The translations under genes were made by a program, and so were the position numbers. A DNA stretch of 64,000 nt, from NCBI GenBank assembly GCA_963701015.1, contig OY969556.1, positions 3,500,424 through 3,564,423 of the forward strand, read 5' to 3'. Within the stretch, counting starts at the first letter, position 1; the number at the start of each line of letters is the position of its first letter. Below the pieces are notes generated by a model. That model searched no databases. It was not told the origin of the DNA and saw nothing but the letters and a program-made list of their open reading frames with translations. The DNA is from an uncultured Bacteroidota bacterium. Its GTDB lineage: Bacteria > Bacteroidota > Bacteroidia > Bacteroidales > DTGW01. Shown here piece by piece: positions 36,463-55,321 of this stretch.

Positions 36463-36470
36463 CATTTGCG

Positions 36471-36632: not shown

Positions 36633-36640
36633 TATATTTG
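36633..36640 (+). promoter_or_regulatory. candidate -7 promoter box (TAnnTTTG) for the integrase operon
   Basis: tatatttg lies 40 nt upstream of the ATG at 36680 and overlaps the 17-bp subterminal repeat. Confidence 0.4.
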
Positions 36641-36654
36641 TGTGCAAATCGTGT
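36638..36654 (+). repeat. 17-bp subterminal direct repeat, copy 1 (ttgtgtgcaaatcgtgt)
   Basis: Identical 17-mer at 55206-55222 in the same orientation. Both copies lie just inside the att repeats. Confidence 0.8.
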
Positions 36655-36679
36655 CTCCAAAAACAAACTTGCACACCCT

Positions 36680-37927: not shown

Positions 37928-37935
37928 TTATACCC

Positions 37936-39429: not shown

Positions 39430-39600
39430 AAAACGACAGAATATAAAATAGGTTCCCTAATTTCTCTAAAAAAAACCTATTTTGTCAATTTTTAAATATC
39501 TGATATTTAATATTATATATACTTTATTTTCTTTATAGGTTTTTTGGAATCCCTATTTTTCAGGTATTTACTTGCATCCATAATTTATAAATAAAAAATT

Positions 39601-39963
39601 ATGGACTTAATCATTACCACGCCTGAAATATTGGCGCAAAATATCGAAAGTGCAGTTTTTAACGCCCTTTCTCGTTTCGAGAAAGCACCAGCCCAACAAA
39701 TCGAGCAACCCGACCGCATTAATATTGAAGAAGTAGCCACAATAACAGGCCTCAAAAAATCAAATATCTATAAACACACCTGTTATAAAACCATTCCGTT
39801 TGAAAAGTTTGCCAAACGCCTTGTTTTTAGTCGCAAAACAATATTAGCCTGGATGCAATCCAATACTATAGCTCCGGTTAATACCTCAATTGAAATGTCT
39901 GCCAGATTAACCAAAGAGGCAAATAAGAAACTTCATAAAAGCTATAAAACATCTAATAAATAA
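39601..39963 (+). CDS. helix-turn-helix (excisionase/AlpA-like, HTH_17-type) DNA-binding protein
   Basis: 120 aa. INIEEVATITGLKKSNIYKHTCYKTIPFEKFAKRLVFSRKTILAWM matches the MerR-superfamily excisionase-type HTH common in Bacteroidota mobile elements. Confidence 0.55.
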   Translation: MDLIITTPEILAQNIESAVFNALSRFEKAPAQQIEQPDRINIEEVATITGLKKSNIYKHTCYKTIPFEKFAKRLVFSRKTILAWMQSNTIAPVNTSIEMSARLTKEANKKLHKSYKTSNK

Positions 39964-39972
39964 TAGTTCACA

Positions 39973-40254
39973 ATGGAAGAAATTAAAGAAACACTTATTT
40001 CTATATCCGAAGGAATAAAGGAAATTAAAGCCCAGCTTAACACATTGGTTCAAACACAACCTGTAAACACTCCTATTAAATGGCTCGATTCTCAGGACGT
40101 TATATTGATGCTTCATATAAGTAAAAGGAAACTTCAATACCTGCGGAATAAAAACACACTTCCCTATTCTCGAATAAATAACAAGTTTTATTATAAAGCC
40201 TCTGATATTGATGAATTTCTAATAGGAAAATACAACGGGGTTACCAATCATTAA
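39973..40254 (+). CDS. helix-turn-helix (excisionase-family, HTH_17-type) DNA-binding protein
   Basis: 93 aa. WLDSQDVILMLHISKRKLQYLRNKNTLPYSRINNKFYYKASDIDEFL shows the same HTH pattern. Confidence 0.6.
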   Translation: MEEIKETLISISEGIKEIKAQLNTLVQTQPVNTPIKWLDSQDVILMLHISKRKLQYLRNKNTLPYSRINNKFYYKASDIDEFLIGKYNGVTNH

Positions 40255-40261
40255 TATTTAC

Positions 40262-41023
40262 ATGTTGATGGATTATATGAATATCCCGGTCGCATTCTGC
40301 GTTTATATGCTCAAAACGCAAAAGGTTAAGCAATTTCGCTTGTTTATATACCTGAAAACCATTTGCAGTGGCCATTTTAAACTATCAGATAGCCTAATTA
40401 AAAAGACTTGTTCTGAATTAGGTTATAAGTCCGAAAAGACATTTTTCGTTCATTTAAAATATTTGGTGCAAAAGAAATGGATAACAGTCAATAGTAAATC
40501 CGGCAATTACAGGCTTATTGGGTATAAACAGGTAGCAAACAGATTAAAAGTACCAACATCAAAAGGAGGTATCTTTTACCCTGAATATTCTAAATGTTTT
40601 ACAGGTTATATAGCAGCGGTTGTAATAACATTTTATATAAAATATAGAAGCCATAATGAGAGGCGGTCGGCATTGAAAAAGTGGAGTGCCAGGAAGAGCC
40701 GCCTCTCGGCTTCTTTTATTTTGCCTCATACTTACTTAGCAAAGGTACTTAAAGTTTCTAAAACTACTGCACAACGATATAGGCAATGTGCGATTGATAC
40801 TGGTTTAATTATAGCAACAAAGTCATATTTTAAAACTTATATACCCATAACCGAAATCCATAATTATAAAAAATACTCAGGTGTTGACCCAAATACAGTT
40901 CGTAAAATAAAAAAGACCATTTACGTTCAACAGGCTGACAAGCTGAAATCCTTGATAACATTAAGAAAGAAAAGAAATATTAGGTTTGTCTCAAAGAAGT
41001 TCGGAAAAAAGTGGTACCGATAA
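40262..41023 (+). CDS. hypothetical basic protein, possible winged-helix DNA-binding / initiator-like
   Basis: 253 aa, Lys/Arg-rich, with two HTH-like segments (SDSLIKKTCSELGYKSEKTFFVHLKYLVQKKWI; HTYLAKVLKVSKTTAQRYRQCAIDTGLI). Third gene of the 39601-41023 operon. Confidence 0.4.
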   Translation: MLMDYMNIPVAFCVYMLKTQKVKQFRLFIYLKTICSGHFKLSDSLIKKTCSELGYKSEKTFFVHLKYLVQKKWITVNSKSGNYRLIGYKQVANRLKVPTSKGGIFYPEYSKCFTGYIAAVVITFYIKYRSHNERRSALKKWSARKSRLSASFILPHTYLAKVLKVSKTTAQRYRQCAIDTGLIIATKSYFKTYIPITEIHNYKKYSGVDPNTVRKIKKTIYVQQADKLKSLITLRKKRNIRFVSKKFGKKWYR

Positions 41024-41087
41024 TAAGTGGATACATAAGGAGAACTATTTTTATTTCTATTTGACTTCAAAAATTAGAATCAATTCT

Positions 41088-41095
41088 TAAATTTG
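41088..41095 (+). promoter_or_regulatory. candidate -7 promoter box (TAnnTTTG) for the type I R-M operon
   Basis: taaatttg lies 92 nt upstream of the hsdR ATG. Confidence 0.3.
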
Positions 41096-41186
41096 ATGTT
41101 TGCTCAAAAAAGTCGTTCAAGTCCTTATTTTTAATAAAATTAGCACTTAAAACTATTATATAATCTAAATATATTAAGATTTCATA

Positions 41187-44186
41187 ATGTCCGAAAACCA
41201 AATAGAAGAAAACCTTATCAAGCAACTAACTGAGTTGAAGTACAACTATCGACCTGATATAGTTGATAGAAAAACGCTTGAACAGAACTTCAAAAATAAG
41301 TTTGAAACACTGAATCGTGTTCATCTTACAGAAAGCGAATTTTTACGTTTGCGTGAAGAAATTATTAATCCTGATCTATTTGTAGCATCTAAGATGCTTC
41401 GTGAAAGAAACTACTTTCAACGTGAAGACGGCACTCCTTTACATTATACCTTAGTAAACATCAAGGATTGGTGCAAAAATGATTATGAAGTTATCAATCA
41501 ATTACGCATCAATACTGAAAATAGTAATCACCGGTACGACATTATTTTACTGATTAATGGATTGCCTGTTGTTCAAATTGAATTAAAAAAAATAGACATT
41601 TCGCCACGAAAAGCTATGCAGCAAATTGTGGACTATAAAAATGATTCTGGAAACGGATATAGCAATACATTGATGTGTTTCATGCAGTTGTTTATTGTAA
41701 GCAACAGCAACAAAACTTATTATTTTGCGAATAATAAAAACCAGCATTTCAGTTTCAATGCCGATGAACAGTTTTTACCTATTTACGAATTAGCAGACGA
41801 AAACAATAAGAAAATTAACTATTTGGAAGAGTTTGCTGAAAAGTTTCTTAAAAAATGCACCCTTGGCGAAATGATAAGCAAGTATATGGTTTTGGTCGAA
41901 AGCGAACAGAAATTACTTGTGATGCGACCGTATCAAATTTATGCGGTAAAAGCAATAGTTGATTGCATACAACAAAATCGGGGCAATGGCTATATATGGC
42001 ACACTACAGGTAGTGGCAAAACTCTCACTTCTTTCAAAGCTTCTACCCTGTTAAAAGACAATCCCGATATTGAAAAATGCCTTTTTGTGGTTGACCGTAA
42101 AGACCTTGACCGACAAACCCGTGAAGAGTTCAATAAATTTCAAGAGGGCAGCGTTGAAGAAAACACCAATACCGAAACATTGGTGAAGCGTTTACTATCT
42201 ACCGACTACGCCGACAAGGTTATTGTTACCACTATTCAAAAATTAGGGTTGGCTTTAGATGGCACTTATAAGAAAAACTACAAAGAACGCTTAGAGCCAT
42301 TGAGCAAAAAGCGTGTTGTTTTCATATTTGACGAGTGCCACCGTTCACAGTTTGGCGATAATCACAAAGCCATAAAAGAGTTTTTCCCGAATGCTCAATT
42401 ATTTGGTTTTACTGGTACACCTATATTTGATGAAAATGCTACTTATAAGATTAGAGAAGATGAATATGGTGCATATAATACTACTGAGGATATATTTCAA
42501 AAAAGATTACACGCATACACCATTACCCACGCCATAGACGATAGAACCGTTCTTAAATTTCATATTGATTATTTCAAAGGCAAAGGCACTCAAAACCCCA
42601 AGCCTGGCGAACCTATTGCTCAACAGGCAGTAGTTGAAGCCATTCTCGACAAGCACAATGCAGCTACCAATTCAAGACGTTTCAATGCAACACTTGCAAC
42701 GGCTTCTATCAATAATGCCATTGAATATTATCAGTTATTCAAAACCATCCAAAAACAGAAGCAAGTAGAAAACGAGGATTACATTTCACTTAATATTGCT
42801 TGTGTATTCTCCCCGCCATCTCAATTAATTGCTAAAGATGGCGACCAACAAAGTCAAAAGAATGCAGCAGACATAAAACAACTTCAAGAAGATTTAACGC
42901 AGGAGAAAGAAGACAACAAACAAAATCCTGAAGAAAAGAAAAATGCTTTAATAGAAATTATTGCCGACTACAATTTGCAGTTTGGAACGAATCACTCTAT
43001 AAATGAATTTGATTTGTACTATCAAGATGTGCAACGGCGCATCAAAGACCAAAAATATAGCAACAAAGACTATCCGCACAAAAACAAAATTGACATTACC
43101 ATAGTGGTAGATATGTTGCTCACAGGTTTTGACTCCAAATACCTCAATACTTTGTATGTGGACAAAAACCTGAAATACCACGGATTGATACAGGCATTTT
43201 CCCGCACCAACCGTGTACTGAATGACACCAAGCCCTACGGGAATATTTTGGATTTCCGTTCACAACAAGATGCCGTAAATCAAGCAATTGCACTATTTTC
43301 AGGTGAAGACAGTGGAAAAGCAAAAGAAATTTGGTTGGTTGACCCTGCACCTGTTGTGATTGATAAATACAAACAAGCAGTTGAAGCCTTGGGCGTTTTT
43401 ATGAAAGAACACGATTTGTCAAACGAACCACAAGAAGTGTATAACCTGCAAGGTGATGCTACTCGCATAGCGTTTGTAAAAAATTTTAAGGAAGTACAAC
43501 GGTTAAAAACCCAATTAGACCAATACACCGACTTAGACGAAACACAACAAGCCAAAATTGAAGCCATTTTGCCTAAGGAAGCCTTACAAGAGTTTAAAAG
43601 CTCATATATAGAAACTGCCAAGCAATTGAGACTAATACAGCAAAAAGATGGCGACCAGGCACCTCCCGAAGTGCAACAATTAGATTTTGAATTTGTGCTT
43701 TTTGCTTCTGCCATTATTGATTACGACTATATAATGAACCTGATAGCCGACAGTACGCAAAAGAAACCAGCAAAGCAAAAGATGACCAAAATACAGGTGA
43801 TTAGCATACTGAGTGCTAATGCCAACCTGATGGACGAGCAGGAAGATTTAACGGAATACATTAATGGGCTTGACTGGAATAGTGGACAAGATGTAAACAC
43901 TTTACGAAAAGGGTACGAAACTTTTAGAGTCGTGAAAAATGAAAAGGAATTAGCTACCATAGCCCACAAACACGGATTGCAAACGTCAGACTTAAAAACT
44001 TTTGTAGCTAAAATAATGAGCCGAATGATTTTTGACGGGGAAAAACTCACTGACTTATTAGAACCACTTGAACTAAGCTGGAAAGAACGCAGGGTAAAAG
44101 AACTGGCTTTAATGGAAGACTTAGTACCCCAATTAAAAAAAATAGCCCAAGGGCGTGACATATCAGGATTAGCAGCTTATGAGTAA
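41187..44186 (+). CDS. hsdR: type I restriction endonuclease subunit R (EcoR124-like, type IC-style)
   Basis: 999 aa. N-terminal nuclease block NRYDIILLINGLPVVQIELK, helicase motif I TTGSGKT, motif II FIFDECHRSQ. Confidence 0.9.
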   Translation: MSENQIEENLIKQLTELKYNYRPDIVDRKTLEQNFKNKFETLNRVHLTESEFLRLREEIINPDLFVASKMLRERNYFQREDGTPLHYTLVNIKDWCKNDYEVINQLRINTENSNHRYDIILLINGLPVVQIELKKIDISPRKAMQQIVDYKNDSGNGYSNTLMCFMQLFIVSNSNKTYYFANNKNQHFSFNADEQFLPIYELADENNKKINYLEEFAEKFLKKCTLGEMISKYMVLVESEQKLLVMRPYQIYAVKAIVDCIQQNRGNGYIWHTTGSGKTLTSFKASTLLKDNPDIEKCLFVVDRKDLDRQTREEFNKFQEGSVEENTNTETLVKRLLSTDYADKVIVTTIQKLGLALDGTYKKNYKERLEPLSKKRVVFIFDECHRSQFGDNHKAIKEFFPNAQLFGFTGTPIFDENATYKIREDEYGAYNTTEDIFQKRLHAYTITHAIDDRTVLKFHIDYFKGKGTQNPKPGEPIAQQAVVEAILDKHNAATNSRRFNATLATASINNAIEYYQLFKTIQKQKQVENEDYISLNIACVFSPPSQLIAKDGDQQSQKNAADIKQLQEDLTQEKEDNKQNPEEKKNALIEIIADYNLQFGTNHSINEFDLYYQDVQRRIKDQKYSNKDYPHKNKIDITIVVDMLLTGFDSKYLNTLYVDKNLKYHGLIQAFSRTNRVLNDTKPYGNILDFRSQQDAVNQAIALFSGEDSGKAKEIWLVDPAPVVIDKYKQAVEALGVFMKEHDLSNEPQEVYNLQGDATRIAFVKNFKEVQRLKTQLDQYTDLDETQQAKIEAILPKEALQEFKSSYIETAKQLRLIQQKDGDQAPPEVQQLDFEFVLFASAIIDYDYIMNLIADSTQKKPAKQKMTKIQVISILSANANLMDEQEDLTEYINGLDWNSGQDVNTLRKGYETFRVVKNEKELATIAHKHGLQTSDLKTFVAKIMSRMIFDGEKLTDLLEPLELSWKERRVKELALMEDLVPQLKKIAQGRDISGLAAYE

Positions 44187-45450
44187 AGAGATAAATAAAT
44201 TGATACCTGAATTGCGGTTTCCTGAATTTGAGAATGAGGGAGAATGGGAGGTAACGAAATTTGAAAAACTTTGCAAGTTTATTCGTGGCCCATTTGGAGG
44301 CGCTCTTAAAAAAGAAATTTTTGTCAAGGATGGTTATGCTGTTTATGAACAGTCACATGCTATCTACAATGACTTTAGCTCATTTAGATATTTCATAACA
44401 GAAGAGAAATTCAATGAGTTAAAACGCTTTTCAATACTTCCTTTTGATATTATAATGAGCTGTTCAGGTACTATGGGTAAGTTTGCTATAGTTCCAAAAG
44501 AGGCAAAAAAAGGAATTATAAACCAAGCTCTTTTAAAGTTAACTGTAAGAGAAGTCTATAATGTTAATTTCGTTAAAGAAATTTTGGAATTACCAGTTAA
44601 TCAGGATAAGTTGTTATCTCAATCTGCTGGTGGTGCAATAAAGAATGTGGTTGAAGTTGCACAAATTAAAGAGATTAAGTTATCAATTCCCAAACTCAAA
44701 GAACAACAAAAAATCGCCTCATGTCTTTCTTCCTTAGATGCTGTAATTGCAGCCCATAGCCAAAAATTAGAAGCCTTAAAAGACCAAAAAAAAGGCTTAT
44801 TGCAAAACCTTTTCCCACAAGAAGGTGAAACTGTGCCGAAATATCGTTTCCCTGAGTTTGTAAAAGATGAGGTGTGGGTGGAGAAAACTTTGGATGAAGT
44901 AGCAACATTTTTAAAAGGAAAAGGAATATCCAAAGCTGATATAGTTGAAAATGGGAGTTTACCATGTATCAGATATGGAGAACTTTATACCCACTACAAA
45001 GAAACTATTGGTATTATAAAATCTTATACGAATTTAAGTGCAGATGATTTAGTGTTAAGTCAAGCTAATGATGTAATTATTCCAGCATCAGGTGAAACCC
45101 AAATTGATATTGCCACAGCATCTTGTGTCTTAGAAAAAGGAATCGCCCTTGGAGGTGATTTAAATATTATTAGGTCAAAGATTAATGGTGTTTTTTTATC
45201 TTATTACCTGAATAATGTTAAGAGAATGGATATAGCGCAATTGGCTCAAGGTATTTCAGTAGTTCATCTTTATCCTAATCAATTAAAAACATTAATGATT
45301 AATATTCCGAAACCAAAGGAGCAAGAAAAAATCGCCAGTTGTCTTTCTTCTTTAGATGATTTATTCACGGCACAAATGGAGAAAATAGAGCAATTGAAGC
45401 TGCACAAAAAGGGTTTGATGCAGGGCTTGTTTCCAAAAGTAATTGATTAA
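44179..45450 (+). CDS. hsdS: type I restriction-modification specificity subunit
   Basis: 423 aa. Two target-recognition halves, each followed by the conserved helix IPK(L/P)KEQ(Q/E)KIASCLSSLD. The start overlaps the hsdR stop by 8 nt. Confidence 0.9.
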   Translation: MSKEINKLIPELRFPEFENEGEWEVTKFEKLCKFIRGPFGGALKKEIFVKDGYAVYEQSHAIYNDFSSFRYFITEEKFNELKRFSILPFDIIMSCSGTMGKFAIVPKEAKKGIINQALLKLTVREVYNVNFVKEILELPVNQDKLLSQSAGGAIKNVVEVAQIKEIKLSIPKLKEQQKIASCLSSLDAVIAAHSQKLEALKDQKKGLLQNLFPQEGETVPKYRFPEFVKDEVWVEKTLDEVATFLKGKGISKADIVENGSLPCIRYGELYTHYKETIGIIKSYTNLSADDLVLSQANDVIIPASGETQIDIATASCVLEKGIALGGDLNIIRSKINGVFLSYYLNNVKRMDIAQLAQGISVVHLYPNQLKTLMINIPKPKEQEKIASCLSSLDDLFTAQMEKIEQLKLHKKGLMQGLFPKVID

Positions 45451-45453
45451 AAT

Positions 45454-46575
45454 ATGAGCCCTAAAATCACAAATTATAAATACAAAACACTAACCAATGT
45501 AGCAGTTAGGTTAAGAGATGATTTAAACGACCATCACTTTGTATTATTATATGCATATAATGGTACAGGAAAAACCCGCCTTTCAATGGAATTTAAAGAT
45601 AGAAGCAAAAAGCGAAAGAAAAATCCTTTAACAGATACGCTTTATTATAATGCATACACAGAAGACCTTTTCCATTGGAACAATGACCTTGAAAATGATA
45701 CTGAGAGGCATTTGATAATCAATAAAAATTCAAGATTTTTTGAAGGGTTCAGGGAATTAGCACTTGAAGAAAAAATATTTAATTTTCTTGAACGATATGC
45801 TGATTTTAATTTTAATATAAATTACGATGATTGGCTCATTGTTTTTAGAAAGCAGGTTAAAAATCCAAAATACAAACCTGAAACAGAGGAATTAGAATAT
45901 ATAACCCAAAACAACATTAAGGTATCAAGAGGTGAAGAAAATATTTTTATTTGGTGTATTTTTCTTGCTATATGTGAGTTAGCCATTGACGGTGACGAAT
46001 CTTATAGTTGGGTAAAATATATTTATATTGATGATCCAATTTCTTCACTTGATGACAATAACGCCATTGCCGTAGCTAGTGATTTGGCTCAATTACTAAA
46101 AAGAGGAAAGGACAAAGTAAGAGTTGTTATCTCTTCGCACCATTCGTTATTTTTTAACGTAATGTATAACGAACTTAGGTCTATTGAGCATAAAAGCCAT
46201 TTTTTACATAAGAACAGTTCGGAAGGGTATATATTGAGAGCTACAGATGACACCCCGTTTTTTCATCACGTTGCTTTGTTGACCGAATTAAAAAAAGCAT
46301 CAGATACAGAAAAGATAAACACATATCATTTTAATATGTTACGTAGCGTCTTGGAAAAGACTTCAACTTTCTTTGGGTACGACGAATTTTCCAAATGTAT
46401 ATACGGTTTAGAAGATGAAGTGCTTTTTTCTCGTGCCTTAAATTTGTTAAGTCATGGAAAATATTCAATATACCAACCTACTGAAATGAATGAAGATAAC
46501 AAAGAGCTATTTAAAAGAATATTGAATGCGTTTTTGGAGAAACACAAATTTCAATTACCTGAAATATTTGCTTAA
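45454..46575 (+). CDS. AAA_13-type ATPase, PrrC-like anticodon nuclease candidate
   Basis: 373 aa. Walker A YNGTGKT, ABC-signature-like VSRGEEN, Walker B YIYIDDPISSLD, and a C-terminal R-x3-E...H pattern (LRSVLE, then SHG 33 residues after the Glu). Embedded between hsdS and hsdM. Confidence 0.6.
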   Translation: MSPKITNYKYKTLTNVAVRLRDDLNDHHFVLLYAYNGTGKTRLSMEFKDRSKKRKKNPLTDTLYYNAYTEDLFHWNNDLENDTERHLIINKNSRFFEGFRELALEEKIFNFLERYADFNFNINYDDWLIVFRKQVKNPKYKPETEELEYITQNNIKVSRGEENIFIWCIFLAICELAIDGDESYSWVKYIYIDDPISSLDDNNAIAVASDLAQLLKRGKDKVRVVISSHHSLFFNVMYNELRSIEHKSHFLHKNSSEGYILRATDDTPFFHHVALLTELKKASDTEKINTYHFNMLRSVLEKTSTFFGYDEFSKCIYGLEDEVLFSRALNLLSHGKYSIYQPTEMNEDNKELFKRILNAFLEKHKFQLPEIFA

Positions 46576-46586
46576 AAAAATTACAA

Positions 46587-48236
46587 ATGACACAAAAAGA
46601 ACAACAACAACTGGGTAAAACCCTTTGGAATATAGCCGATGAACTAAGAGGTGCAATGAATGCAGATGATTTTCGAGATTATATGCTTTCGTTTCTTTTC
46701 CTTCGGTATTTATCATACAACTACGAAGAATCAGCAAAAAAGGAATTAGGAAAAGATTACCCTGATGATACTCTAAAGGATGTTATGTCAAAACTTAAAG
46801 TTAAAACACCTTTGGAGATTTGGTATAAAGAAAACCCAAAGGAAGTTGAAGATTTTGAAAAGCAAATGAGGCGTAAAGTTCATTATGTTATCAAACCACA
46901 ACACCTATGGAGCAATATTACCGAATTGGCACGTACTCAAGATGGAGAGTTACTAAAAACTTTGGGGAAAGGTTTTAAATACATAGAAAATGAATCGTTT
47001 GAAGGTTCTTTTCAGGGTTTATTTTCTGAAATTAATTTGAACTCTGAAAAACTAGGAAAAACAGAAACGGAAAGAAATAAAAAACTCTGTACCATCATTC
47101 AAAAAATTGCTGAAGGTATAGCAGATTTTTCAACAGATTCCGACACCCTTGGCGATGCTTATGAGTATTTAATTGGACAGTTTGCCGCAGGTTCGGGTAA
47201 AAAAGCGGGCGAGTTTTATACGCCACAACAAATCTCAACCATCTTATCTGAAATCGTAACATTAGACAGTCAAGACCCAACAATGGGTAAGAAGAAAAAA
47301 TTTGATAAAGTGCTTGATTTTGCTTGCGGTTCAGGTTCTTTATTGCTGAATGTAAGAAAACGAATAAAAGATAATGACGGCACTATTGGCAAAATATATG
47401 GGCAGGAAAAGAACATAACTACTTACAACCTTGCCCGAATGAATATGCTTTTGCACGGTATGAAAGACACGGAGTTTGAGATATTTCACGGTGACACACT
47501 TCTCAATCAATGGGATATGCTCAACGAAATGAATCCATCTAAAAAAATTGAATTTGATGCTATTGTAGCTAATCCACCGTTTAGTTTACGTTGGGAACCA
47601 GACGATACGTTGGCAGAAGACTTTCGTTTTAAAAGCTATGGTTTAGCGCCAAAATCAGCAGCCGACTTTGCTTTTTTATTACATGGTTTTCACTTTCTTG
47701 GGAAAGAGGGTACAATGGCTATTATATTACCGCATGGTGTTTTATTCCGTGGCGGCGCAGAAGAAAAAATCCGTACCAAACTTTTAAAAGATAACAATAT
47801 TGATACGGTAATTGGGTTGCCTTCAAACTTATTCTATTCAACTGGTATTCCTGTTTGTATTTTGATATTGAAAAAATGCAAAAAGGAAGATGATGTACTT
47901 TTCATTAATGCCAGTGAACATTATGAAAAAGGCAAACGTCAAAACACCCTCAGAGAAGGCGAAGACGGTGAACCAAACGATATTCAAAAAATTGTTGAAA
48001 CATATCAATTCCGTCCTGAAAATGTTGAAAGATATGCTCGTAGAGTTTCAATGGAAGAAATCGAGAAGAACGGCTACAATCTTAACATTTCAAGATATGT
48101 AAGTACATCATTTGACGAAGTACAGATTGACTTAAAAAAAGTAAACACAAAATTGACAGCAATAAATGAAAGTATAAAAACGAACACAGTTAAACACAAT
48201 GAATTTTTGAAAGAGTTGGGATTACCCCCTATTTAA
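46587..48236 (+). CDS. hsdM: type I restriction-modification DNA methyltransferase subunit (N6-adenine)
   Basis: 549 aa. GEFYTPQQIS, SAM-binding DFACGSGSLL, catalytic IVANPPFS. Confidence 0.92.
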   Translation: MTQKEQQQLGKTLWNIADELRGAMNADDFRDYMLSFLFLRYLSYNYEESAKKELGKDYPDDTLKDVMSKLKVKTPLEIWYKENPKEVEDFEKQMRRKVHYVIKPQHLWSNITELARTQDGELLKTLGKGFKYIENESFEGSFQGLFSEINLNSEKLGKTETERNKKLCTIIQKIAEGIADFSTDSDTLGDAYEYLIGQFAAGSGKKAGEFYTPQQISTILSEIVTLDSQDPTMGKKKKFDKVLDFACGSGSLLLNVRKRIKDNDGTIGKIYGQEKNITTYNLARMNMLLHGMKDTEFEIFHGDTLLNQWDMLNEMNPSKKIEFDAIVANPPFSLRWEPDDTLAEDFRFKSYGLAPKSAADFAFLLHGFHFLGKEGTMAIILPHGVLFRGGAEEKIRTKLLKDNNIDTVIGLPSNLFYSTGIPVCILILKKCKKEDDVLFINASEHYEKGKRQNTLREGEDGEPNDIQKIVETYQFRPENVERYARRVSMEEIEKNGYNLNISRYVSTSFDEVQIDLKKVNTKLTAINESIKTNTVKHNEFLKELGLPPI

Positions 48237-48445
48237 TATTAAATTGGGTATGTTTTCTTTGCCCATAAAGTCCATTAGAATATATAATGTGGTTCCTTAT
48301 TACCATAAAGTTGATGTTGTTGTTGGTTAAGAATTTATGTCTTTATCAACTTTATTTTCTGTGGTATACTAATCATTTATTAACAAACTGCCTCTTTTTA
48401 TATGAATTTTTATTAACTTCATAGCTTCTTTTTCGTACAATTAAA

Positions 48446-48453
48446 TATATTTG
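48446..48453 (+). promoter_or_regulatory. candidate -7 promoter box (TAnnTTTG) for the 48504-49984 gene pair
   Basis: tatatttg lies 51 nt upstream of the ATG at 48504. Confidence 0.4.
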
Positions 48454-48503
48454 TACAGTTATAATTTACTCGCTTTTAAGTAAGTTTAATTAAATAAAAC
48501 AAA

Positions 48504-49019
48504 ATGACTGATTCACTTTATGCTGAAAATATTGACTTTTTAGCTGCAAATAAAAAGGATGAGGAATTTTTTAATTCAAGTGAAGCACACGCCCAAATAG
48601 TTTTATCATCTATGGTGAAATATTCCAATAAAGATGTTAATATCTATTGTGGGAACATGTGTACTGACGTTTCTAATGACCCTACGTATTTAAAAGAAAT
48701 CAAATCATTTTTAGATGACCGTAATGGCACTATTAATGTATTATTGTGTGATTATAACGATTCATTTAAAGAAAAAGAAATATATAAATTATTGTCTGCT
48801 TACATTCCTTTAAAGGTTAAAGTAAAAAAGACAAAAAAGGTACTCTTATTTAATAACAAACCTGTTCATTTTACTATATCAGACAGCTCAGCTTTTCGTT
48901 TAGAAACAGACATTGATGCTAAAATGGCTAGGGGTAATTTCAATGACCCTAACAGTGCAATTAAATTAAACGAGTATTTTTTTACTTTATTTAATCAACA
49001 GGCCAGCACTGAAGTTTAA
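48504..49019 (+). CDS. hypothetical soluble protein, 171 aa, unknown family
   Basis: Clean ORF with its own promoter-like box and no TM segment. The secondary-structure layout is only vaguely reminiscent of a single Nuc-type PLD domain, and there is no HxK(x)4D motif. Confidence 0.5.
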   Translation: MTDSLYAENIDFLAANKKDEEFFNSSEAHAQIVLSSMVKYSNKDVNIYCGNMCTDVSNDPTYLKEIKSFLDDRNGTINVLLCDYNDSFKEKEIYKLLSAYIPLKVKVKKTKKVLLFNNKPVHFTISDSSAFRLETDIDAKMARGNFNDPNSAIKLNEYFFTLFNQQASTEV

Positions 49020-49033
49020 ATTTAAAGCTTAAA

Positions 49034-49984
49034 ATGTCGTTACTTAACACAATCTCAGATTATACTGACATAATTGCTATTTCAATAGGTTTAAATCTTG
49101 CTTATGTTATTATAACTAACTACACATTAAAAGGTAATGATAATAAAGCAAGTTTTTTCGACATACTATCTCTATATGTTGATAGTGCTATAAGTCGTAT
49201 AGTTAAGAGAAAATCAAAAAAGTTAATTACATTAAAAAATCTACAACTTAAGCTTGAATATTATTTAGCTTCAAAATCTTCAAATAACAGTGAAAAAAAA
49301 GCTATTGTAAAGAATATTGATGATGAGCTCAAAAATATTGACACATCAGTAAATGATTTAATTGAGAATAAAAAAATAAAAGTTAAAAGAGCTATAAGAG
49401 CTAAATACTATTCTCATATTTCATTATTACTTGCAACTTATGGTATTTTTATTCTTTTCTTATCTCCTTTAGAAAAAAGAATTTTTCTAAGCTTTAACAG
49501 CATATTAGTTTATTTAAATTTTATCACTTTTTTTTGTGTCATACATTCAATTATTTGGGAATTTCAAACTCTTTATATAAAAATTAAGAAACTAAGTATA
49601 TTAAATACTATTATTTGTGATTTGAGTAATTTATTAGCTCCAAGATTTCGCAACATTATATATTCTCAATTTATTTTTATTATAGCTTTAATAATTGCTA
49701 TTTATTGTAAATATTTTAATACTTATGTTGCCTTGAAATTTCCATTTTTTTATAGAAATGCTTTAGTATTTGCAACGGTTTTACTTTTTTCAAATTTTAT
49801 ATTTTATACAATTTTTTGTTTTATTCGTGTTGAAATTGTTGTAAGTCGCTTTAAACGAAAATTAAAAGCTCTTGATATTTCAAATAAAGTAATAACTTAC
49901 AATGGCCTGTTAGCTCCTATATTAAAGGATTTAGAAAATGACCCATTAGTTGTTGTTTCAGAAATTGTTTTAACACAGAAATAG
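49034..49984 (+). CDS. hypothetical integral membrane protein, 316 aa (1 N-terminal TM, charged linker, about 4 C-terminal TMs)
   Basis: Hydrophobic stretches IIAISIGLNLAYVIITNY, ISLLLATYGIFILFLSPL, ILVYLNFITFFCVIHSIIW, IIYSQFIFIIALIIAIYC, LVFATVLLFSNFIFYTIFCFI. Starts 14 nt after the preceding ORF. Confidence 0.5.
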   Translation: MSLLNTISDYTDIIAISIGLNLAYVIITNYTLKGNDNKASFFDILSLYVDSAISRIVKRKSKKLITLKNLQLKLEYYLASKSSNNSEKKAIVKNIDDELKNIDTSVNDLIENKKIKVKRAIRAKYYSHISLLLATYGIFILFLSPLEKRIFLSFNSILVYLNFITFFCVIHSIIWEFQTLYIKIKKLSILNTIICDLSNLLAPRFRNIIYSQFIFIIALIIAIYCKYFNTYVALKFPFFYRNALVFATVLLFSNFIFYTIFCFIRVEIVVSRFKRKLKALDISNKVITYNGLLAPILKDLENDPLVVVSEIVLTQK

Positions 49985-50218
49985 TAAGTGGCTTAACATT
50001 TAGTTGCATGTAATCCATGTCAAATAGAAAATTTTCTAATTTTCCAAATCAAATATTCCTCACCGCACTAGCAGGTTACATTGGCTTTAATATTGGCAAA
50101 GCCTAATCCAATTATAAGTTGTGGCAAAACAGGTATTTTCACGGCAAACAATACTAAATTTTGAATTATACTGTTATAAGTTGTTATTTTATGGTTGTAA
50201 TAAATTCTTTAAAACTCC

Positions 50219-50932
50219 ATGAAATCTATAATTTCACTTTTGCTTTTAATATATCCCTTTGCTTTATTTGGTCAGTTTAACATCAATTCCGTATTACCTC
50301 AGAAAGTAAAAAATGCAAAACTTATAAAATATTCCAGTTACGAAGTAATGTTCGATACAATTGAATGTGCGCCTGTTTATTCAGCTTATATAATAACAAA
50401 ATCTGAAATTTCGCACCATTCAATTAAAAGGGCAAAAGAAAGATTCAAAAATGATAAGTCAGTGTCATGTGTAAAAGTAAAAAATTATACAAACTCAGGC
50501 TATGACAAAGGCCATTTAACCCCGGCTGCCGATATGGAATATTCTCAGCAAAGCATGGACGATTGTTTTTATATCACAAATATTTGCCCTCAGTTACATG
50601 ATTTCAATGCTGGTATTTGGGAACATTTAGAAATGAAAGTAAGAGATTGGGCAGAAAAATACGATAGTTTGTTAATCATCAGCGCACCAGTATTAGAAAC
50701 TTGCATAAAAAAAGGAAATCTCACAGTCCCAACCCAATTTTACAAAATAATTTACTCCATTCAGCAAAACACAGCCACCGCCTTTTTAATGGATGCCAAC
50801 CTGATCGAAGGTTCAATATTCAATTATCAAACCACAGTCTCAAAAATTGATAGCATTACAAAGCTCAATTATTTCAAAGTAAATGGTAGTTCAAACAGGT
50901 TAAATTTTATGGATACTAATTTTTTGAAATGA
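50219..50932 (+). CDS. secreted DNA/RNA non-specific endonuclease (Endonuclease_NS / NucA family)
   Basis: 237 aa with signal peptide. Active-site block SGYDKGHLTPAAD (DRGH-type) followed by NICPQ...FNAGIWEHLE. Confidence 0.8.
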   Translation: MKSIISLLLLIYPFALFGQFNINSVLPQKVKNAKLIKYSSYEVMFDTIECAPVYSAYIITKSEISHHSIKRAKERFKNDKSVSCVKVKNYTNSGYDKGHLTPAADMEYSQQSMDDCFYITNICPQLHDFNAGIWEHLEMKVRDWAEKYDSLLIISAPVLETCIKKGNLTVPTQFYKIIYSIQQNTATAFLMDANLIEGSIFNYQTTVSKIDSITKLNYFKVNGSSNRLNFMDTNFLK

Positions 50933-51127
50933 ATTTTGATAATTATATACAAGTAATATATTAAAAGCGAAAATAATGTTAAAAATTAAATGGTTTTCTA
51001 AGGGTAACTCTTATAAAGGCGGTTGGGAGTTAAATATTATGACAAGTACATACCAATTACGTATAGCGCAGTATCAATTTGCGTTATGGAAAAATTATAA
51101 TGCTATATTTAATCTTTTAAATTTTGC

Positions 51128-51415
51128 TTAACTACATTCAGGAAGACTAAGAAGATTATCCACAGTTGTATCGTCTGATGTAGTTCTAAGATATTTACGC
51201 CCATTATGTGTAGATATAAAGACATTTACATCTCTATTGCCTACCTTAACATGATAATTATAAATTCCTTGCTCGATGTGTCTTATACCCTCTTCTTCTG
51301 TTATTTTAATACGGTTGCCATAAGTTCCCCAATCACCTCCTATGTGTGTTATTCTTTGGTGTGAGTCCTGTCTTAAAGGTTTGTTGATACATTTAATCTG
51401 TCTAGAAGTTGCCAT
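51128..51415 (-). CDS. DUF3892 domain protein
   Basis: 95 aa. The pattern ITHIGG...W...I...I......Y.V......V.V......KYLRT..D....DNLLSLPEC matches DUF3892 as I remember it. Confidence 0.65.
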   Translation of the reverse strand: MATSRQIKCINKPLRQDSHQRITHIGGDWGTYGNRIKITEEEGIRHIEQGIYNYHVKVGNRDVNVFISTHNGRKYLRTTSDDTTVDNLLSLPECS

Positions 51416-51461
51416 AATATTAGATTTAAAGTTAATAAATAAAAATTAAGGTTTCAATTAC

Positions 51462-51614
51462 TTATTTAGATTTAGTTTTTTTACCTGGCCTTGTTTGCGC
51501 TAAGTCTGAGCCTGCAACAGATTTTTCTCTTTTTGTTGAATGAGGGTCTTTCAATATTTTAGCTGCTATGCTTGCAACTTTTTTTGAGGTCTGCTTTGAA
51601 TTTTTTTGTACCAT
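51462..51614 (-). CDS. possible small basic protein (50 aa), below the ORF-track cutoff
   Basis: Hand translation gives MVQKNSKQTSKKVASIAAKILKDPHSTKREKSVAGSDLAQTRPGKKTKSK. It lies 46 nt upstream of, and co-oriented with, the DUF3892 gene. Confidence 0.3.
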   Translation of the reverse strand: MVQKNSKQTSKKVASIAAKILKDPHSTKREKSVAGSDLAQTRPGKKTKSK

Positions 51615-51914
51615 AATTTTAAGTTTTAGTTAATTTAAAACGTTATTAAAATTAAATAATTATTACAGATTTAACAGCAATAATTAATCTAGTTTATGAA
51701 GTTAAAGAATAATTGTATTGTATATTTTATTAAATATTGTCCTAATAGTTTATCAAAAATTAAGCAATGATATCATGTAAGTGTCTATAATACAAATGTT
51801 TGAATTATTAACTTAAATTATTATAATATTTCATATAATATTTGTTTCTTTACATTGTGGTAAAACAATTTATTAACAATCTGCAAAGTCATCTTTTTAA
51901 AACAAAAAGAATAT

Positions 51915-51922
51915 TAATTTTG
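51915..51922 (+). promoter_or_regulatory. candidate -7 promoter box (TAnnTTTG) for the DUF4065 operon
   Basis: taattttg lies 50 nt upstream of the ATG at 51972. Confidence 0.4.
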
Positions 51923-51971
51923 CACATTTTTTGCAGTGTTCTCTTAAATTAATAAAGTAATATTTTTAATT

Positions 51972-52589
51972 ATGTTTAGAATATTACAAAATAATATTAT
52001 CGGGAATATCTTAATTTCTTTCGCTGAAAAAATTCCTTATCTTTCTTTAACAAAGGCTTTAAAACTTTTATATTTATTAGATGAGCATTCTGTTAAGGAA
52101 ATTGGCGTTCCTGTAACTTGGCTTGAATATAAAGTTTGGGAATTAGGTCCAGTTGCAGAAGATATCTATAATGAAATTAAATACAGCGAAAAAATTAGTA
52201 TTTATGGTAAAGTAACATCTTTAGATGAATTCATTACAATAAAGAAAGGGGCAAATAATGCTAAAAAAACCGAAGAGACTTATATTTTAGCTAAAAAAAC
52301 ATTTGATGAATCCGAATTTACAGAATATGAGTTAGAGTTAATAAACAGTATTATAGAAAAATATGGTAAACTTAATGCTAAAGAACTTGTAGATTTATTG
52401 CATAAAGAAAATACACTTTGGTCTAAAATTGTTAAAGAAAATAATCTGACAGAGCACTTCAAAAAATTTAATAGTAAATCAAATTATACAATTCCTTTTA
52501 GTAATTTAATTGATAATGAACTAAAGGAGATGGCTTATAATGCTGCTTTCGAATCGCTTGATTTTGAAAAAGAGTTAACTGCTAATTAA
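51972..52589 (+). CDS. Panacea (DUF4065) domain protein, SocA/PanA-type antitoxin candidate
   Basis: 205 aa. LTKALKLLYLLDEHSVKEIGVPVTWLEYKVWELGPVAEDIY fits the DUF4065 core (KLxYLxD...G.P....Y.aW..GPV). Confidence 0.7.
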   Translation: MFRILQNNIIGNILISFAEKIPYLSLTKALKLLYLLDEHSVKEIGVPVTWLEYKVWELGPVAEDIYNEIKYSEKISIYGKVTSLDEFITIKKGANNAKKTEETYILAKKTFDESEFTEYELELINSIIEKYGKLNAKELVDLLHKENTLWSKIVKENNLTEHFKKFNSKSNYTIPFSNLIDNELKEMAYNAAFESLDFEKELTAN

Positions 52590-52601
52590 AAGTATTTTAA
52601 A

Positions 52602-53075
52602 GTGCCTTCTCTATTTAAATTTGAGCCTGCTTCCATTTATAAAGTCAATAATTACGTATTTGATGATGATAATTCTGTTAGAGATAAATATCTGATTGTT
52701 TTACACATTAATCAAGATGAACTATATCTAATTAATACATTAACCACTACAAATAAAAGAACAGGAAAACAAGATGTATTTAATGGCTGTAATTCTCTGG
52801 ATGGTTTTCATTTTTATTTCTTTCAAGAAAAGCATGAAATAGGGAAAGAGAAATTCTTTTTTGATAAAGATACTTATATATTCTTCTATAAAAACATAAG
52901 AAAACAACCTATTAGTAAATATGATGAGCATATAAAAAATAGCAGTATAATGAAATTGGACTCATTAACTGATTATGAATATGGTAGATTATTGAAGTGT
53001 ATTTTAAAAACCAAACATATTACTCCCGATATAAAAAAAGAGTTGACAACAGTTAAGGAAGGTATTTCAAATTAG
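52602..53075 (+). CDS. hypothetical protein, candidate toxin partner of the DUF4065 protein
   Basis: 157 aa, GTG start 12 nt after the upstream stop. The N-terminal pattern (IYKVNNYVF...RDKYLIVLH...LINTLTT) is loosely MazF/PemK-barrel-like. No firm family. Confidence 0.4.
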   Translation: MPSLFKFEPASIYKVNNYVFDDDNSVRDKYLIVLHINQDELYLINTLTTTNKRTGKQDVFNGCNSLDGFHFYFFQEKHEIGKEKFFFDKDTYIFFYKNIRKQPISKYDEHIKNSSIMKLDSLTDYEYGRLLKCILKTKHITPDIKKELTTVKEGISN

Positions 53076-53953
53076 CATTACAAACTAAATTCATTCTATT
53101 TCTTATTCAAAACGATTAATTGGTATTTCTCATTATTCTATGTCAAGCATTACACCTGCCCTTATGTCTAATAAAATATAAAACAAAATTTATGGAAAAC
53201 ATCCCACAGGGCAAAAAACCCAGATGTTTGGCAAAATAAATTGTTAATATTTTAAAGGTATTTTACCAAACACCCCCTGTCTTTTTTGCCCCTCCACTCA
53301 GCCGTCCCTTCTGTAATTTTTTCTGTCATGCTTTTTGTATCAGCCCACATGCAGCACATTGCTTTTTCTCTAATTGTTTTAAAGCGGTATTAAAAAGCAA
53401 AGAGCTGCCCAACCCCACAAACAAAAAGACCCGCCAAAAAAAATTACCCCAAGCTATGTTTACATAATGTGCATTATATAACTGCCTATTTAAGCGGTAT
53501 AAATAACATGTTTTCGGCATTCATATAATGAACATTATGTACAAGGGCGTTGCCAAATAGCCACACGCCGACCCACGCCAGACACACACAGCCGGCACAT
53601 TGTATTTTGTTTTTTATCATGTTTATTTTTTAAGGTAAAAACAAAATCCAAAGAGCCGCCTGTCAGCCATTCCAATGGTGCAAGAGCTGTAAAAAAGCCA
53701 GCCACCACTCTAAATCCAACCTAAAATGTCTTTTTTTCAGCACTTGCATTCTCTTTAATCCACCAACAAACCCCGACCACCACCCCTATTAAAGTGGTGT
53801 AAACATCTATTTAAGCTATTGAAACGAGAATAACCCCGACAAGCTCCCTGCAAACTCGCAAACCCAGAGCCGGGGTTATTTCCCGTTCCAACAGCACATC
53901 ATTATCAACATTATAGTAAATTAGCCATCACTCAAACTAAGCGGCCACTATCT

Positions 53954-54025
53954 CGTTGCACACTTCACAAACTCTCCGTTGCACTTCGTTGTTTGCTTGT
54001 GTTCACTTCGTTACTGTCCACTTAC
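53954..54025 (+). repeat. iteron-like array: four CACTT(C/A) cores, two embedded in CGTTGCAC(AC)TTC and two in CACTTCGTT
   Basis: Cores at 53961-53966, 53982-53987, 54004-54009 and 54019-54024, spaced 21, 22 and 15 nt. Confidence 0.6.
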
Positions 54026-54227
54026 TTTTTACCCAATGCACAATGAATTAGGGTTACGCACATTAAGAAATAAGCGGTATTTACATATTAAAAAATAAAA
54101 AAGGGCAGCAAATTTAGGCTGGCTCACACATGCCCTCACTAAACAAAAAAGCAAGGAATTTCCGGCATAAACACAAGCCACTGCTTAAAAGCCCTCATTT
54201 ATTCCGTTCCTCCTTGCTTTTTTCCTA

Positions 54228-54268
54228 AAGCCAGCCAGTTCAATGGCTTTCTTTTTCTTTTTTTCTCG
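54228..54268 (+). terminator. intrinsic terminator at the end of the ORF-free block
   Basis: aaagcca (54228-54234) pairs with tggcttt (54244-54250) across a 9-nt loop, followed by ctttttctttttttctcgtttttt. Confidence 0.5.
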
Positions 54269-54379
54269 TTTTTTCTTTCTCTTTTGAAAAATGTATTTTA
54301 ATAATGAAGATATAAAGGTGCATTTTGAAGCAAATCTCAGCATAAGAACCATTTATATATAACTATAATATCATTAAAG

Positions 54380-54387
54380 TAATTTTG
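54380..54387 (+). promoter_or_regulatory. candidate -7 promoter box (TAnnTTTG) upstream of the DUF6266-like gene
   Basis: taattttg lies 115 nt upstream of the ATG at 54502. The 14-nt direct repeats at 54424-54459 lie between the box and the start codon. Confidence 0.3.
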
Positions 54388-54423
54388 ATAAGGATTTGAT
54401 AAACTGATGTATTAGGACTAAAA

Positions 54424-54459
54424 TATTACCAAGTCTATACCAAAGTATTACCAAATCTA
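54424..54459 (+). promoter_or_regulatory. two 14-nt direct repeats (TATTACCAA[G/A]TCTA) spaced 22 nt; candidate operator
   Basis: Copies at 54424-54437 and 54446-54459 with 13/14 identity, about 45 nt upstream of the ATG at 54502. Confidence 0.4.
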
Positions 54460-54501
54460 AGTTGTTTTAAAATAAAGTATAAACCTCAAAAATTTAAAAA
54501 G

Positions 54502-55143
54502 ATGGGTATAATAAAACAAGGTATTTTAGGTGGTGTTTCCGGCGGAGTCGGAACAGTCATTGGTGGTTCATGGAAAGGAATTGATTATGTTAGGTCACGT
54601 CCAAGCTCTGTTACAAATCCAAATTCAGACAAGCAACAAAGCCAGCGATCTAAATTCTCAACTGTAATAAGCTTTTTAAAGCCACTTACTGGCTTAGTAA
54701 CAGTCACTTTTAGAAACTATGCGATAGGTATGTCAGGCTTTAATGTGGCAATGTCTTATAATATCAAGAATGCAATAACCGGAACCTCTCCTGACTTCAC
54801 AATTGATTATACATTAGCCTTACTTAGTCAGGGCGATCTTTCAAAAGCCTTTAATCCTAAAGTTGCAGTTTCGGGAAGTAATACTATTGCATACACATGG
54901 GTAAACAATAGTGATGAAGGAAACGCCAATGAAGATGACCAGGCAATATTAATGGCATATTTTGAAAGCAATGGCCAAGCAGTCTATCAGTTTACAACCG
55001 TAAAAAGAACCGCTGCAACCGCTAATTTAAGCATTCCTGCAAGTTATACGGGATTAGTTGCAAAATGCTGGATAGCATTTCAAACAGCTGATGGTCTAGA
55101 CTTTTCAAATAGTATTTATGTTGGAGAAGTTACTATGGCTTAA
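54502..55143 (+). CDS. DUF6266-like protein
   Basis: 213 aa. The Gly-rich N-terminus GILGGVSGGVGTVIGGSWKGIDYVRSRP...NPNSDKQQSQRSKF resembles Bacteroidota DUF6266 family proteins from memory. Confidence 0.45.
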   Translation: MGIIKQGILGGVSGGVGTVIGGSWKGIDYVRSRPSSVTNPNSDKQQSQRSKFSTVISFLKPLTGLVTVTFRNYAIGMSGFNVAMSYNIKNAITGTSPDFTIDYTLALLSQGDLSKAFNPKVAVSGSNTIAYTWVNNSDEGNANEDDQAILMAYFESNGQAVYQFTTVKRTAATANLSIPASYTGLVAKCWIAFQTADGLDFSNSIYVGEVTMA

Positions 55144-55205
55144 TTAATTCGATTAGTTTATTATATTAAAATGCCATTCTTTAGGATGGTATTTTTTTTA
55201 TAATG

Positions 55206-55222
55206 TTGTGTGCAAATCGTGT
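55206..55222 (+). repeat. 17-bp subterminal direct repeat, copy 2 (ttgtgtgcaaatcgtgt)
   Basis: Identical to 36638-36654. Lies 54 nt inside attR. Confidence 0.8.
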
Positions 55223-55230
55223 GTAAATTT

Positions 55231-55267
55231 AAATAAAAGAGGGCTCCCATTTATGTGAAAGCCCTTT
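55231..55267 (-). terminator. hairpin plus T-run downstream (minus strand) of tRNA-Ala, on island-derived DNA
   Basis: agggct (55240-55245) pairs with agccct (55260-55265). The complement of aaataaaa gives a T-rich run on the minus strand. Confidence 0.4.
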
Positions 55268-55276
55268 ATTTGCGGG

Positions 55277-55321
55277 TGGAGAATATCGGAGTCGAACCGA
55301 TGACCTTTTGCATGCCATGCA
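55277..55321 (-). repeat. attR: 45-bp direct repeat forming the 3' part of the intact tRNA-Ala
   Basis: Identical to 36471-36515. Confidence 0.9.

Follow-up and report, generated by a model that had tools for sequence, protein, structure and literature searches.

Two adjacent genes, here called A and B, lie in a 64,000-nt stretch of DNA from an uncultured Bacteroidota bacterium (contig OY969556.1, positions 3,500,424 to 3,564,423; the whole of this stretch is referred to below as the window), and there is strong evidence that they make up a real, widespread and mobile unit. A encodes a cytoplasmic protein, assigned by transitivity to the DUF7931 family and with a predicted phospholipase D (PLD)/Nuc-type fold, and B a membrane protein that accompanies it at nearly all of the loci found. 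Soluble and membrane proteins paired for superinfection exclusion or abortive infection (Abi) on phages and genomic islands are a known kind of system, and the components of this one are new: A belongs to a catalogued, uncharacterized family, and B to no catalogued family. The pair is a credible candidate for a new phage-exclusion module. The reading favored here, with somewhat less than even confidence, is of an operon of two genes, complete in itself and moving horizontally, that would be of the toxin-antitoxin (TA), Abi or superinfection-exclusion type, with A as sensor or regulator and B as membrane effector. The evidence for its function is circumstantial.

Conservation and Co-inheritance of the Pair

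The original prediction, made from the letters of the window, had described two plus-strand open reading frames (ORFs) 14 nt apart as an orphan cassette. Both ORFs and their spacing were borne out (Table 1), and the orphan label fails: A has a large family (2081 sequence clusters, detailed below), and B is its conserved partner. Loci carrying A are given here by L numbers and individual A proteins by P numbers. A hidden Markov model (HMM) of the B family finds a B ORF directly 3′ of A, on the same strand, at 12 of 13 independent non-viral loci; at the thirteenth (L026) there is a distant B-like ORF, matched by hhalign at 95.7% over the N-terminal half, which is too diverged for the HMM. One further locus, L012, is uninformative for the partner, its contig stopping 96 nt after A. 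The B homologues downstream of A include those of L001 (39% identity, E 8e-62), L003 (E 4e-26) and L013, a Paludibacter metagenome-assembled genome (MAG; E 5e-20), as well as those of L020, L021 and L018, matched by hhalign at 99.7, 98.4, and 97.6%, respectively. All share a layout of a weak N-terminal helix, a charged helical linker of about 100 aa, and four transmembrane (TM) helices.

Across the 13 independent pairs, the spacing between A and B ranges from -10 to +67 nt, and pairwise identities among the A proteins are correlated with those among the B proteins (r = 0.85; Mantel test, 0 of 5000 permutations). The GC content of the pair is below that of its locus in 13 of 13 cases, for example 0.26 vs. 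0.44 in L003, 0.40 vs. 0.53 in L021, and 0.25 vs. 0.33 in the window. A and B were found together in essentially every locus with room for a partner, as the original prediction had supposed for a functional unit. The two proteins may also make contact.

Viral sequences give a similar picture. A degenerate DNA pattern of the family motif retrieved 21 IMG/VR contigs, all carrying true members of the A family (E 1e-31 to 1e-61), whose A proteins fall into 12 clusters at 90% identity. Most of these contigs with downstream room have a B-type partner, clear in L028, L031, L032, L034/39, L041/45, L044, and L046 and weaker in L035 and L036. In L044 and L045 the pair is followed by ORFs of 1106–1327 aa. 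Scans of IMG/VR with peptide patterns of A2, P0020, and P0016 found nothing, and tblastn searches with the window A, two phage-borne relatives and a consensus found no A among the cultured phages of INPHARED or the plasmids of PLSDB. Among 185,579 GTDB species representatives just one, a Paludibacter MAG, matched A.

Genomic Contexts

The sample of independent, informative contexts is small; the neighborhoods of L006, L008–11, L012, L014, and L017 are uninformative. Phages or prophages account for three metagenomic loci and the 21 IMG/VR contigs, restriction-modification (R-M) or other defense islands for four loci, the window included, capsule operons for two, and housekeeping flanks for two. 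Among the phage loci, L018/19 has large and small terminase subunits and a replication initiator; L021/22 is a prophage with an S24 CI-type repressor, RecT, YqaJ, terminase, SU10 capsid, and tail genes; and in L026 the pair lies in a tail region, between tape-measure/virion proteins and the tail fiber. Among the defense loci, L001/L002 has a type III R-M system (Res, E 1e-45) and a HerA-like ATPase upstream of the pair and HipAB and Fic downstream, while L005 has a type I R-M system in divergent orientation. The expectation that relatives would lie in defense or phage neighborhoods is therefore often borne out (the window, L001, L005, L023, the three phage loci, and the 21 IMG/VR contigs). Nor is the pair assigned to anything, and so to no non-defense function, by Pfam, NCBIfam, PHROGs, or PADLOC.

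There are two capsule loci. In L020 the pair is within a capsule operon rich in glycosyltransferases, which flank it, on the same strand. In L023–25 it is within a polysaccharide operon, with a methyltransferase-specificity (MTase-S) fusion, Septu (PtuA E 1e-48, PtuB E 8e-37) and PDC-M62 within 9 kb; in L023 itself it lies on the same strand between epimerases and Glycos_transf_4, with A and B overlapping by 4 nt and the next gene 13 nt off. The housekeeping loci are L013, where the pair is between priA and sppA, and L003, where it adjoins pirin and succinate dehydrogenase.

Two of these neighborhoods have features of their own. In L001 (positions 1–5682), the type III R-M genes (Res, Mod) precede a gene for a HerA/DUF87 ATPase and one for a 445-aa protein that has no family; this stretch may be a HerA-associated defense module directly upstream of the pair. 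In L023, positions 12973–19859 form a defense island in or at the end of the polysaccharide locus, about 1.5 kb downstream of the pair, containing the MTase-specificity fusion, Septu PtuA/PtuB, and the A and B genes of the candidate system PDC-M62.

Protein A

By hydropathy, A has neither a signal peptide nor a TM segment. The window A has no family at E ≤ 0.01 in Pfam, NCBIfam, PHROGs, or PADLOC, and does not itself match the Pfam DUF7931 model (PF25559) at E ≤ 1. A word-index search recovered nine homologues with 42–67% identity. The closest of them (P0002, 67% identical to the window A) scores 29.3 bits against DUF7931, for which the gathering cut-off is 27; P0004, P0005, P0006, P0009, and P0010 score 19.5–26.1 bits, under the 27-bit cut-off, and P0020 has a weak precomputed match. 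Since these homologues reach or approach the cut-off, the window A would by transitivity be a divergent member of DUF7931. With an A profile, an exhaustive HMMER search of 1.84 billion cluster representatives (clusters at 50% identity) retrieved 2081 clusters at E ≤ 1e-3, of which 871 reach E ≤ 1e-10 and 55 reach E ≤ 1e-30. Among the best 150 of the 2081, every protein is stand-alone, 106–232 aa long and free of domain fusions. Literature searches on DUF7931 found nothing relevant.

The original prediction had seen in A a vague likeness to a single PLD/Nuc domain without the catalytic HKD motif (HxK(x)4D), a reading now backed by structure prediction and fold search. An AlphaFold2 (AF2) model from a 10-sequence alignment has a pLDDT of 94.4 and a pTM of 0.89. 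In a Foldseek search of the PDB it has 70 matches at E ≤ 1e-3, of which the best 50 are all of the PLD superfamily (probability 1.00, E 2e-7 to 1e-4, query TM-score (TMq) 0.55–0.66), among them vaccinia F13, FAM83/BJ-TSA-9, NucT, Nuc, TrmB/TrmBL2, PLD3, and phosphatidylserine synthase (PssA); the six matches at E ≤ 1e-3 in the viral library BFVD are likewise all PLD-type. With Nuc of pKM101 (PDB 1byr) and NucT (PDB 6ehi), A shares fold, size, and order of secondary structure. At the level of sequence, no PLDc-type Pfam model matches A at E ≤ 1, the A-family profile matches no PDB sequence at E ≤ 10, and the hhalign probability for A against Nuc is 1.5%, which is not significant.

Conservation was measured over 159 family members. 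R132 and E134 are present in all of them, N24 and A142 in 98%, D127 in 97%, and H29, D136, and N147 in 86%; His122 is found in 87%, with Asn in the other 21 of 159 (13%). The family motif can be written [HN]-F-[TCAS]-x2-D-x3-[YF]-R-x-E-x-D … A-x-[GC]-[NS]-F-N, and reads H122-F-T124-I-S-D127 in the window A. Compared with the H-x-K-x4-D of canonical PLDs, then, A has H-x-[TCAS]-x2-D: position 124 is T, C, A, or S, and Lys in 0 of 159 members. There is no clear GSxN; A has A142-x-[GC]-[NS]-F-N147 and the invariant E134, which would at best be putative counterparts of the GSxN and Glu of Nuc (hhalign probability 1.5%). Canonical PLDs lack the invariant R132-x-E134. To judge by strand order alone, His122, at the start of the strand that bears the HKD motif in Nuc, would occupy the place of the HKD His.

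A is thus a PLD-fold protein with a strongly constrained polar site, and is not a canonical HKD phosphodiesterase. The PLD fold, the lack of Lys at position 124, the His/Asn variation at position 122, and the invariance of R132 and E134 together make it look more like a binder or regulator than a canonical hydrolase. In this respect it is closer to the non-catalytic or variant PLD folds, such as the DUF1669 domain of FAM83, the sensor domain of TrmB/TrmBL2, and poxvirus F13.

Protein B

The layout proposed for B in the original prediction, an N-terminal helix, a charged linker, and four C-terminal TM helices, was upheld by hydropathy. The strong TM segments are residues 128–146, 156–174, 207–225, and 244–262, and there is a weaker hydrophobic helix at 10–28. 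The linker (30–128) contains 22 K/R with a net charge of +11, and the C-terminal tail of about 50 aa (264–316) contains 9 K/R; by the positive-inside rule, both would face the cytoplasm. An AF2 model from a two-sequence alignment is all-helical and unreliable (pLDDT 45).

Neither B nor any of 12 B homologues has a family in Pfam, NCBIfam, PHROGs, or PADLOC. N21, L141, and P145 are the sole invariant positions across the 12 homologues, among which no charged or catalytic residue is conserved. B also diverges more quickly than A (mean identity 22 vs. 40% over the 13 pairs). A protein that diverges faster than its partner and conserves no charged or catalytic residue would fit a pore or a structural effector. 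Word-index searches with B, whether as a single sequence or as a five-sequence profile, retrieved nothing beyond B itself and a single relative of short form, because its low-complexity, AT-biased composition cut their sensitivity; the relatives were recovered instead from the neighborhoods of A. A stator of the MotA/ExbB/TolQ type (TM1, long cytoplasmic helices, TM2–TM3) was considered for B and rejected: hhalign against E. coli ExbB gave a probability of 0.25%, and 0 of 12 B members have a MotA_ExbB Pfam match.

Partner Exchange in One Phage Lineage

In one lineage of IMG/VR phages, all from a single sample, A is found with two different partners. The A genes of L027/33/40/43 and those of L028/38/47 are 93% identical in protein and 96.3% in nucleotide sequence, over 564 nt. 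When positions 1797–3696 of L027 are compared with 4110–5658 of L028 (reverse complement), DNA homology ends exactly at the stop codon of A, with a 40-bp block resuming further downstream. A is followed in L028 by a B-type, five-TM ORF of 304 aa, and in L027 by an unrelated, soluble ORF of 236 aa that overlaps it by 4 nt. With near-identical A genes before different downstream genes, A is the constant module and the downstream gene the exchangeable one. As a rule, modular defense and TA systems keep their sensor or antitoxin and exchange their effector.

Two identities considered for the 236-aa protein found no support. It does not appear to be a B without TM helices (0.1% by hhalign to B), nor a Panacea antitoxin, having no Pfam match and a BLASTP E of 0.49 to the SocA of the window. 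It has no match in the PDB. A convergent ORF of 156 aa after this gene looks Panacea-like by eye, with a BLASTP E of just 0.017.

Possible Functions

The favored assignment of roles follows from several properties taken together: the order of the genes, soluble first and TM second; the absence of catalytic residues from B and its fast divergence; the non-HKD site of A; and the exchangeable partner. A would be a cytoplasmic protein with a PLD fold, probably forming a dimer as Nuc does, that has lost canonical HKD chemistry and kept a polar site (N24, D127, R132, E134, with His122 in 87%). It may serve as the constant sensing or regulatory subunit, binding a phosphodiester-type ligand or nucleic acid. 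B would be the exchangeable membrane effector, with a cytoplasmic linker and tail able to touch A, and with a four-helix TM bundle that might compromise the membrane or block DNA entry, either in response to an infection signal from A or upon loss of A. Both the identity of the toxic subunit and any effect on phages are matters that we infer.

The distribution of the pair, like that of a small cassette of the selfish or accessory sort, agrees with such a role. With its foreign GC content, it is found on an integrative island, in accessory positions of phages, in R-M and defense islands, in variable capsule loci, and now and then by itself among housekeeping genes. This kind of distribution is typical of phage-defense, superinfection-exclusion, and TA modules. 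Of the sensor-plus-membrane-effector Abi system proposed in the original prediction, the pairing and the phage and defense contexts have therefore stood, while its function continues to be read from architecture and neighborhood.

A number of observations weigh against this interpretation. Neither A nor B matches any family in PADLOC-DB v2.0.0 (5027 models) at E ≤ 1. The independent informative contexts are few; two lineages lie within capsule or polysaccharide operons, on the same strand and tightly spaced (L020, L023), and two more lie between housekeeping genes (L013, L003). The viral locus L037 has an A without a partner. The invariant R/E/D/N set of A may just as well form a catalytic site, in which case A itself would be the effector, and pore formation by B, with a model at pLDDT 45, is pure conjecture.

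A bolder generalization, which seems rather unlikely as a whole, is that DUF7931 proteins are new non-HKD PLD-fold sensors of phage nucleic acid or of a phosphodiester ligand, driving interchangeable effectors of which an undescribed five-helix membrane family is the commonest. They would then form a widespread, modular anti-phage or exclusion system, carried for the most part by phages and by islands in Bacteroidota and in uncultured bacteria related to them.

Among the alternatives, the one that fares best, though it is unlikely, has the roles reversed: A would be an atypical PLD-fold nuclease, phosphodiesterase, or phospholipase effector, and B would anchor or sense at the membrane, placing A, or switching it on, where phage DNA enters or where the membrane is perturbed. 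Such an arrangement would resemble the membrane-tethered nuclease SNIPE, or Kiwa and Zorya, in which sensing at the membrane is coupled to action in the cytoplasm. The fold of A is that of PLD/Nuc, PLD-family nucleases are common as defense effectors (e.g., DrmC of DISARM; PMC13276650), and the absolutely conserved polar residues (R132, E134, D127, N24, His122) suggest an active site; phage and defense contexts would fit equally well. However, the HKD Lys is absent from 159 of 159 members and the putative nucleophile His is replaced by Asn in 13%; the sequence searches of A against PLD Pfam models and the PDB, negative at E ≤ 1 and E ≤ 10, respectively, also speak against it. The exchange seen between L027 and L028 would moreover be of a sensor or anchor rather than of an effector, which is less common.

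Less probable again is a plain addiction module, stabilizing its mobile carriers without a dedicated anti-phage role, with B as membrane toxin and A as antitoxin. The linkage, co-inheritance, and mobility documented above (spacing of -10 to +67 nt, Mantel r of 0.85, low GC in 13/13) are those of a TA cassette: two tightly coupled genes with the soluble one first, low in GC, and located variously in prophages, among unrelated genes, and on an integrative island. TA pairs are often adjacent (SocA/Panacea for the window, HipAB for L001, and by eye the Panacea-like ORF for L027), and the exchange of partners resembles TA promiscuity. Yet A has no DNA-binding or other recognizable antitoxin domain, and is larger and more conserved than typical antitoxins. 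TA and Abi functions are in any case not mutually exclusive, so that addiction is partly a sub-case of the favored sensor-and-effector reading.

The least probable alternative, modification of envelope lipid or surface polysaccharide by A as a PLD-type phosphatidyl or phosphoryl transferase acting at the membrane with B, draws on the two independent lineages within capsule or polysaccharide operons on the same strand (L020, L023) and on fold matches that include the membrane-associated PLD enzymes F13, phosphatidylserine synthase, and PLD3, but A lacks the HKD Lys that PLD-type transferases need, B shows none of the conserved charges that a partner of a transferase or flippase should have, the majority of contexts lie outside envelope loci, and L023 has Septu and PDC-M62 just downstream. 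Temperate phages carry envelope-modifying cassettes, and a phage-borne pair of this sort would be one for lysogenic conversion (seroconversion), with a new mechanism. The GC content of the pair, below that of the surrounding capsule genes, suggests insertion into these operons rather than membership in them.

If the pair does act in defense or exclusion, a Pfam DUF of over 2000 sequence clusters would gain a function, B would stand for a new membrane-effector family, and the PLD fold would be seen in use without HKD chemistry, probably as a sensor. Being common in uncultured phages and in islands of Bacteroidota-like bacteria, the pair could influence the dynamics between phages and hosts, both in the gut and in environmental communities. 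The natural exchange, in which the same A has either a TM or a soluble partner, is a ready-made experiment on which subunit senses and which kills.

Comparison with Known Systems

The RexA/RexB proteins of phage lambda and gp30/gp31 of mycobacteriophage Sbash are analogous prophage pairs. Each is also a two-gene operon, encoding first a soluble protein and then a multi-TM one with four core helices, and the A/B pair has this architecture, soluble plus multi-TM, on prophages and defense islands. Like RexAB it is carried by temperate phages, in L021 within a few genes of a CI-type repressor, and its low, moron-like GC content invites the same comparison. Unlike RexAB, it has no PADLOC similarity, and A has a PLD fold; B, with an additional N-terminal helix and the charged helical linker of about 100 aa, is much larger than RexB. 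Any relationship between A/B and RexA/RexB would thus be one of functional analogy, without homology.

Kiwa (the membrane protein KwaA with KwaB) likewise consists of two genes, for a four-TM protein and a soluble partner, and is found in defense islands. Its gene order and both of its protein families differ from those of A/B, which has no PADLOC match at E ≤ 1. Gp15 of HK97 is a superinfection-exclusion moron located in the tail-gene region. As with such morons, the pair can be found in late or tail regions of phages with a deviating GC content (L026, and perhaps L044 and L045) and includes a membrane protein; unlike gp15, a single small membrane protein, it has two components, and there is no homology between them. 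Literature searches for defense pairs of a PLD and a TM protein found no description of such a pair.

Upstream Region and Surrounding Island

A distance of 267 nt separates the hsdM stop codon (at 48236) from the ATG of A, as the original prediction had it, and the -7 box TATATTTG that it noted is present at 48446–48453, 50 nt upstream of this ATG. A scan for the Bacteroidota-type motif TAnnTTTG found 101 occurrences in the window where 115 were expected. In view of this lack of enrichment, the TATATTTG box is compatible with a Bacteroidota promoter and is not evidence for one. The same intergenic region contains an 11-nt perfect inverted repeat with a 29-nt loop (48305–48315 and 48345–48355, ATAAAGTTGAT … ATCAACTTTAT), which might serve either to end transcription of hsdM or as an operator. 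A terminator scan predicted no intrinsic terminators around the A/B pair.

The pair lies within an integrative island (Table 1) bounded by perfect 46-bp direct repeats at 36470–36515 and 55276–55321, the second of which is the 3′ half of a tRNA-Ala(GGC) gene (55275–55350, minus strand). An Rfam scan of the island found tRNA only. GC content is 23–30% at 48–53 kb and 31–39% on either side. All of the defense-type genes of the region are in this island.

Table 1. Position of the A/B pair and of other features of the island in the window.
Feature	Coordinates	Strand	Evidence or remarks
Integrative island, ~18.8 kb	36470..55321		Direct repeats, tRNA, integrase
Tyrosine integrase	36638–37927		Island cargo
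Two HTH_17 genes			Island cargo
Type I R-M + PrrC operon	41187–48236		Island cargo
HsdR	41187–44186		vs. EcoR124I HsdR, E 4e-107
HsdS	44179–45450		vs. PDB 1yf2, E 4e-15
PrrC-type anticodon-nuclease homologue, 373 aa	45454–46575	+	PADLOC PrrC E 9e-137; Pfam AAA_13
HsdM	46587–48236		HsdM_N and N6_Mtase domains
hsdM–A intergenic region, AT-rich	48237..48503	+	Sequence reading
Gene A, 171-aa cytoplasmic DUF7931-family protein, predicted single-domain PLD/Nuc-type fold	48504..49019	+	AF2, Foldseek, homologues
Gene B, 316-aa membrane protein, partner of A	49034..49984	+	Hydropathy, charge, homologues 3′ of A
Secreted DNA/RNA non-specific endonuclease	50219–50932	+	Pfam Endonuclease_NS E 6e-44; signal-peptide-like N-terminus
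DUF3892 gene			Island cargo
SocA/Panacea pair	51972–53075	+	SocA/Panacea antitoxin, Pfam E 1.5e-22

Several of the other genes of the island may be noted briefly. Directly after the integrase there is a 497-aa ORF (37936–39429, plus strand) without a Pfam match. The PrrC homologue, between hsdS and hsdM, has the classical arrangement of a prr locus, here in an AT-rich genome. The Endonuclease_NS gene starts 234 nt 3′ of B, is not beside the pair at other loci, and is probably cargo independent of it. Twelve nucleotides after the SocA/Panacea gene there is a 157-aa ORF that matches no family in the libraries searched, likely an uncharacterized Panacea-associated toxin. The following ~1.4 kb (53076–54500), with just 50–64-aa ORFs, no Rfam match, a strong GC skew of -0.30, and a GC content above that of its surroundings, could be a decayed gene or a non-coding element within the island.

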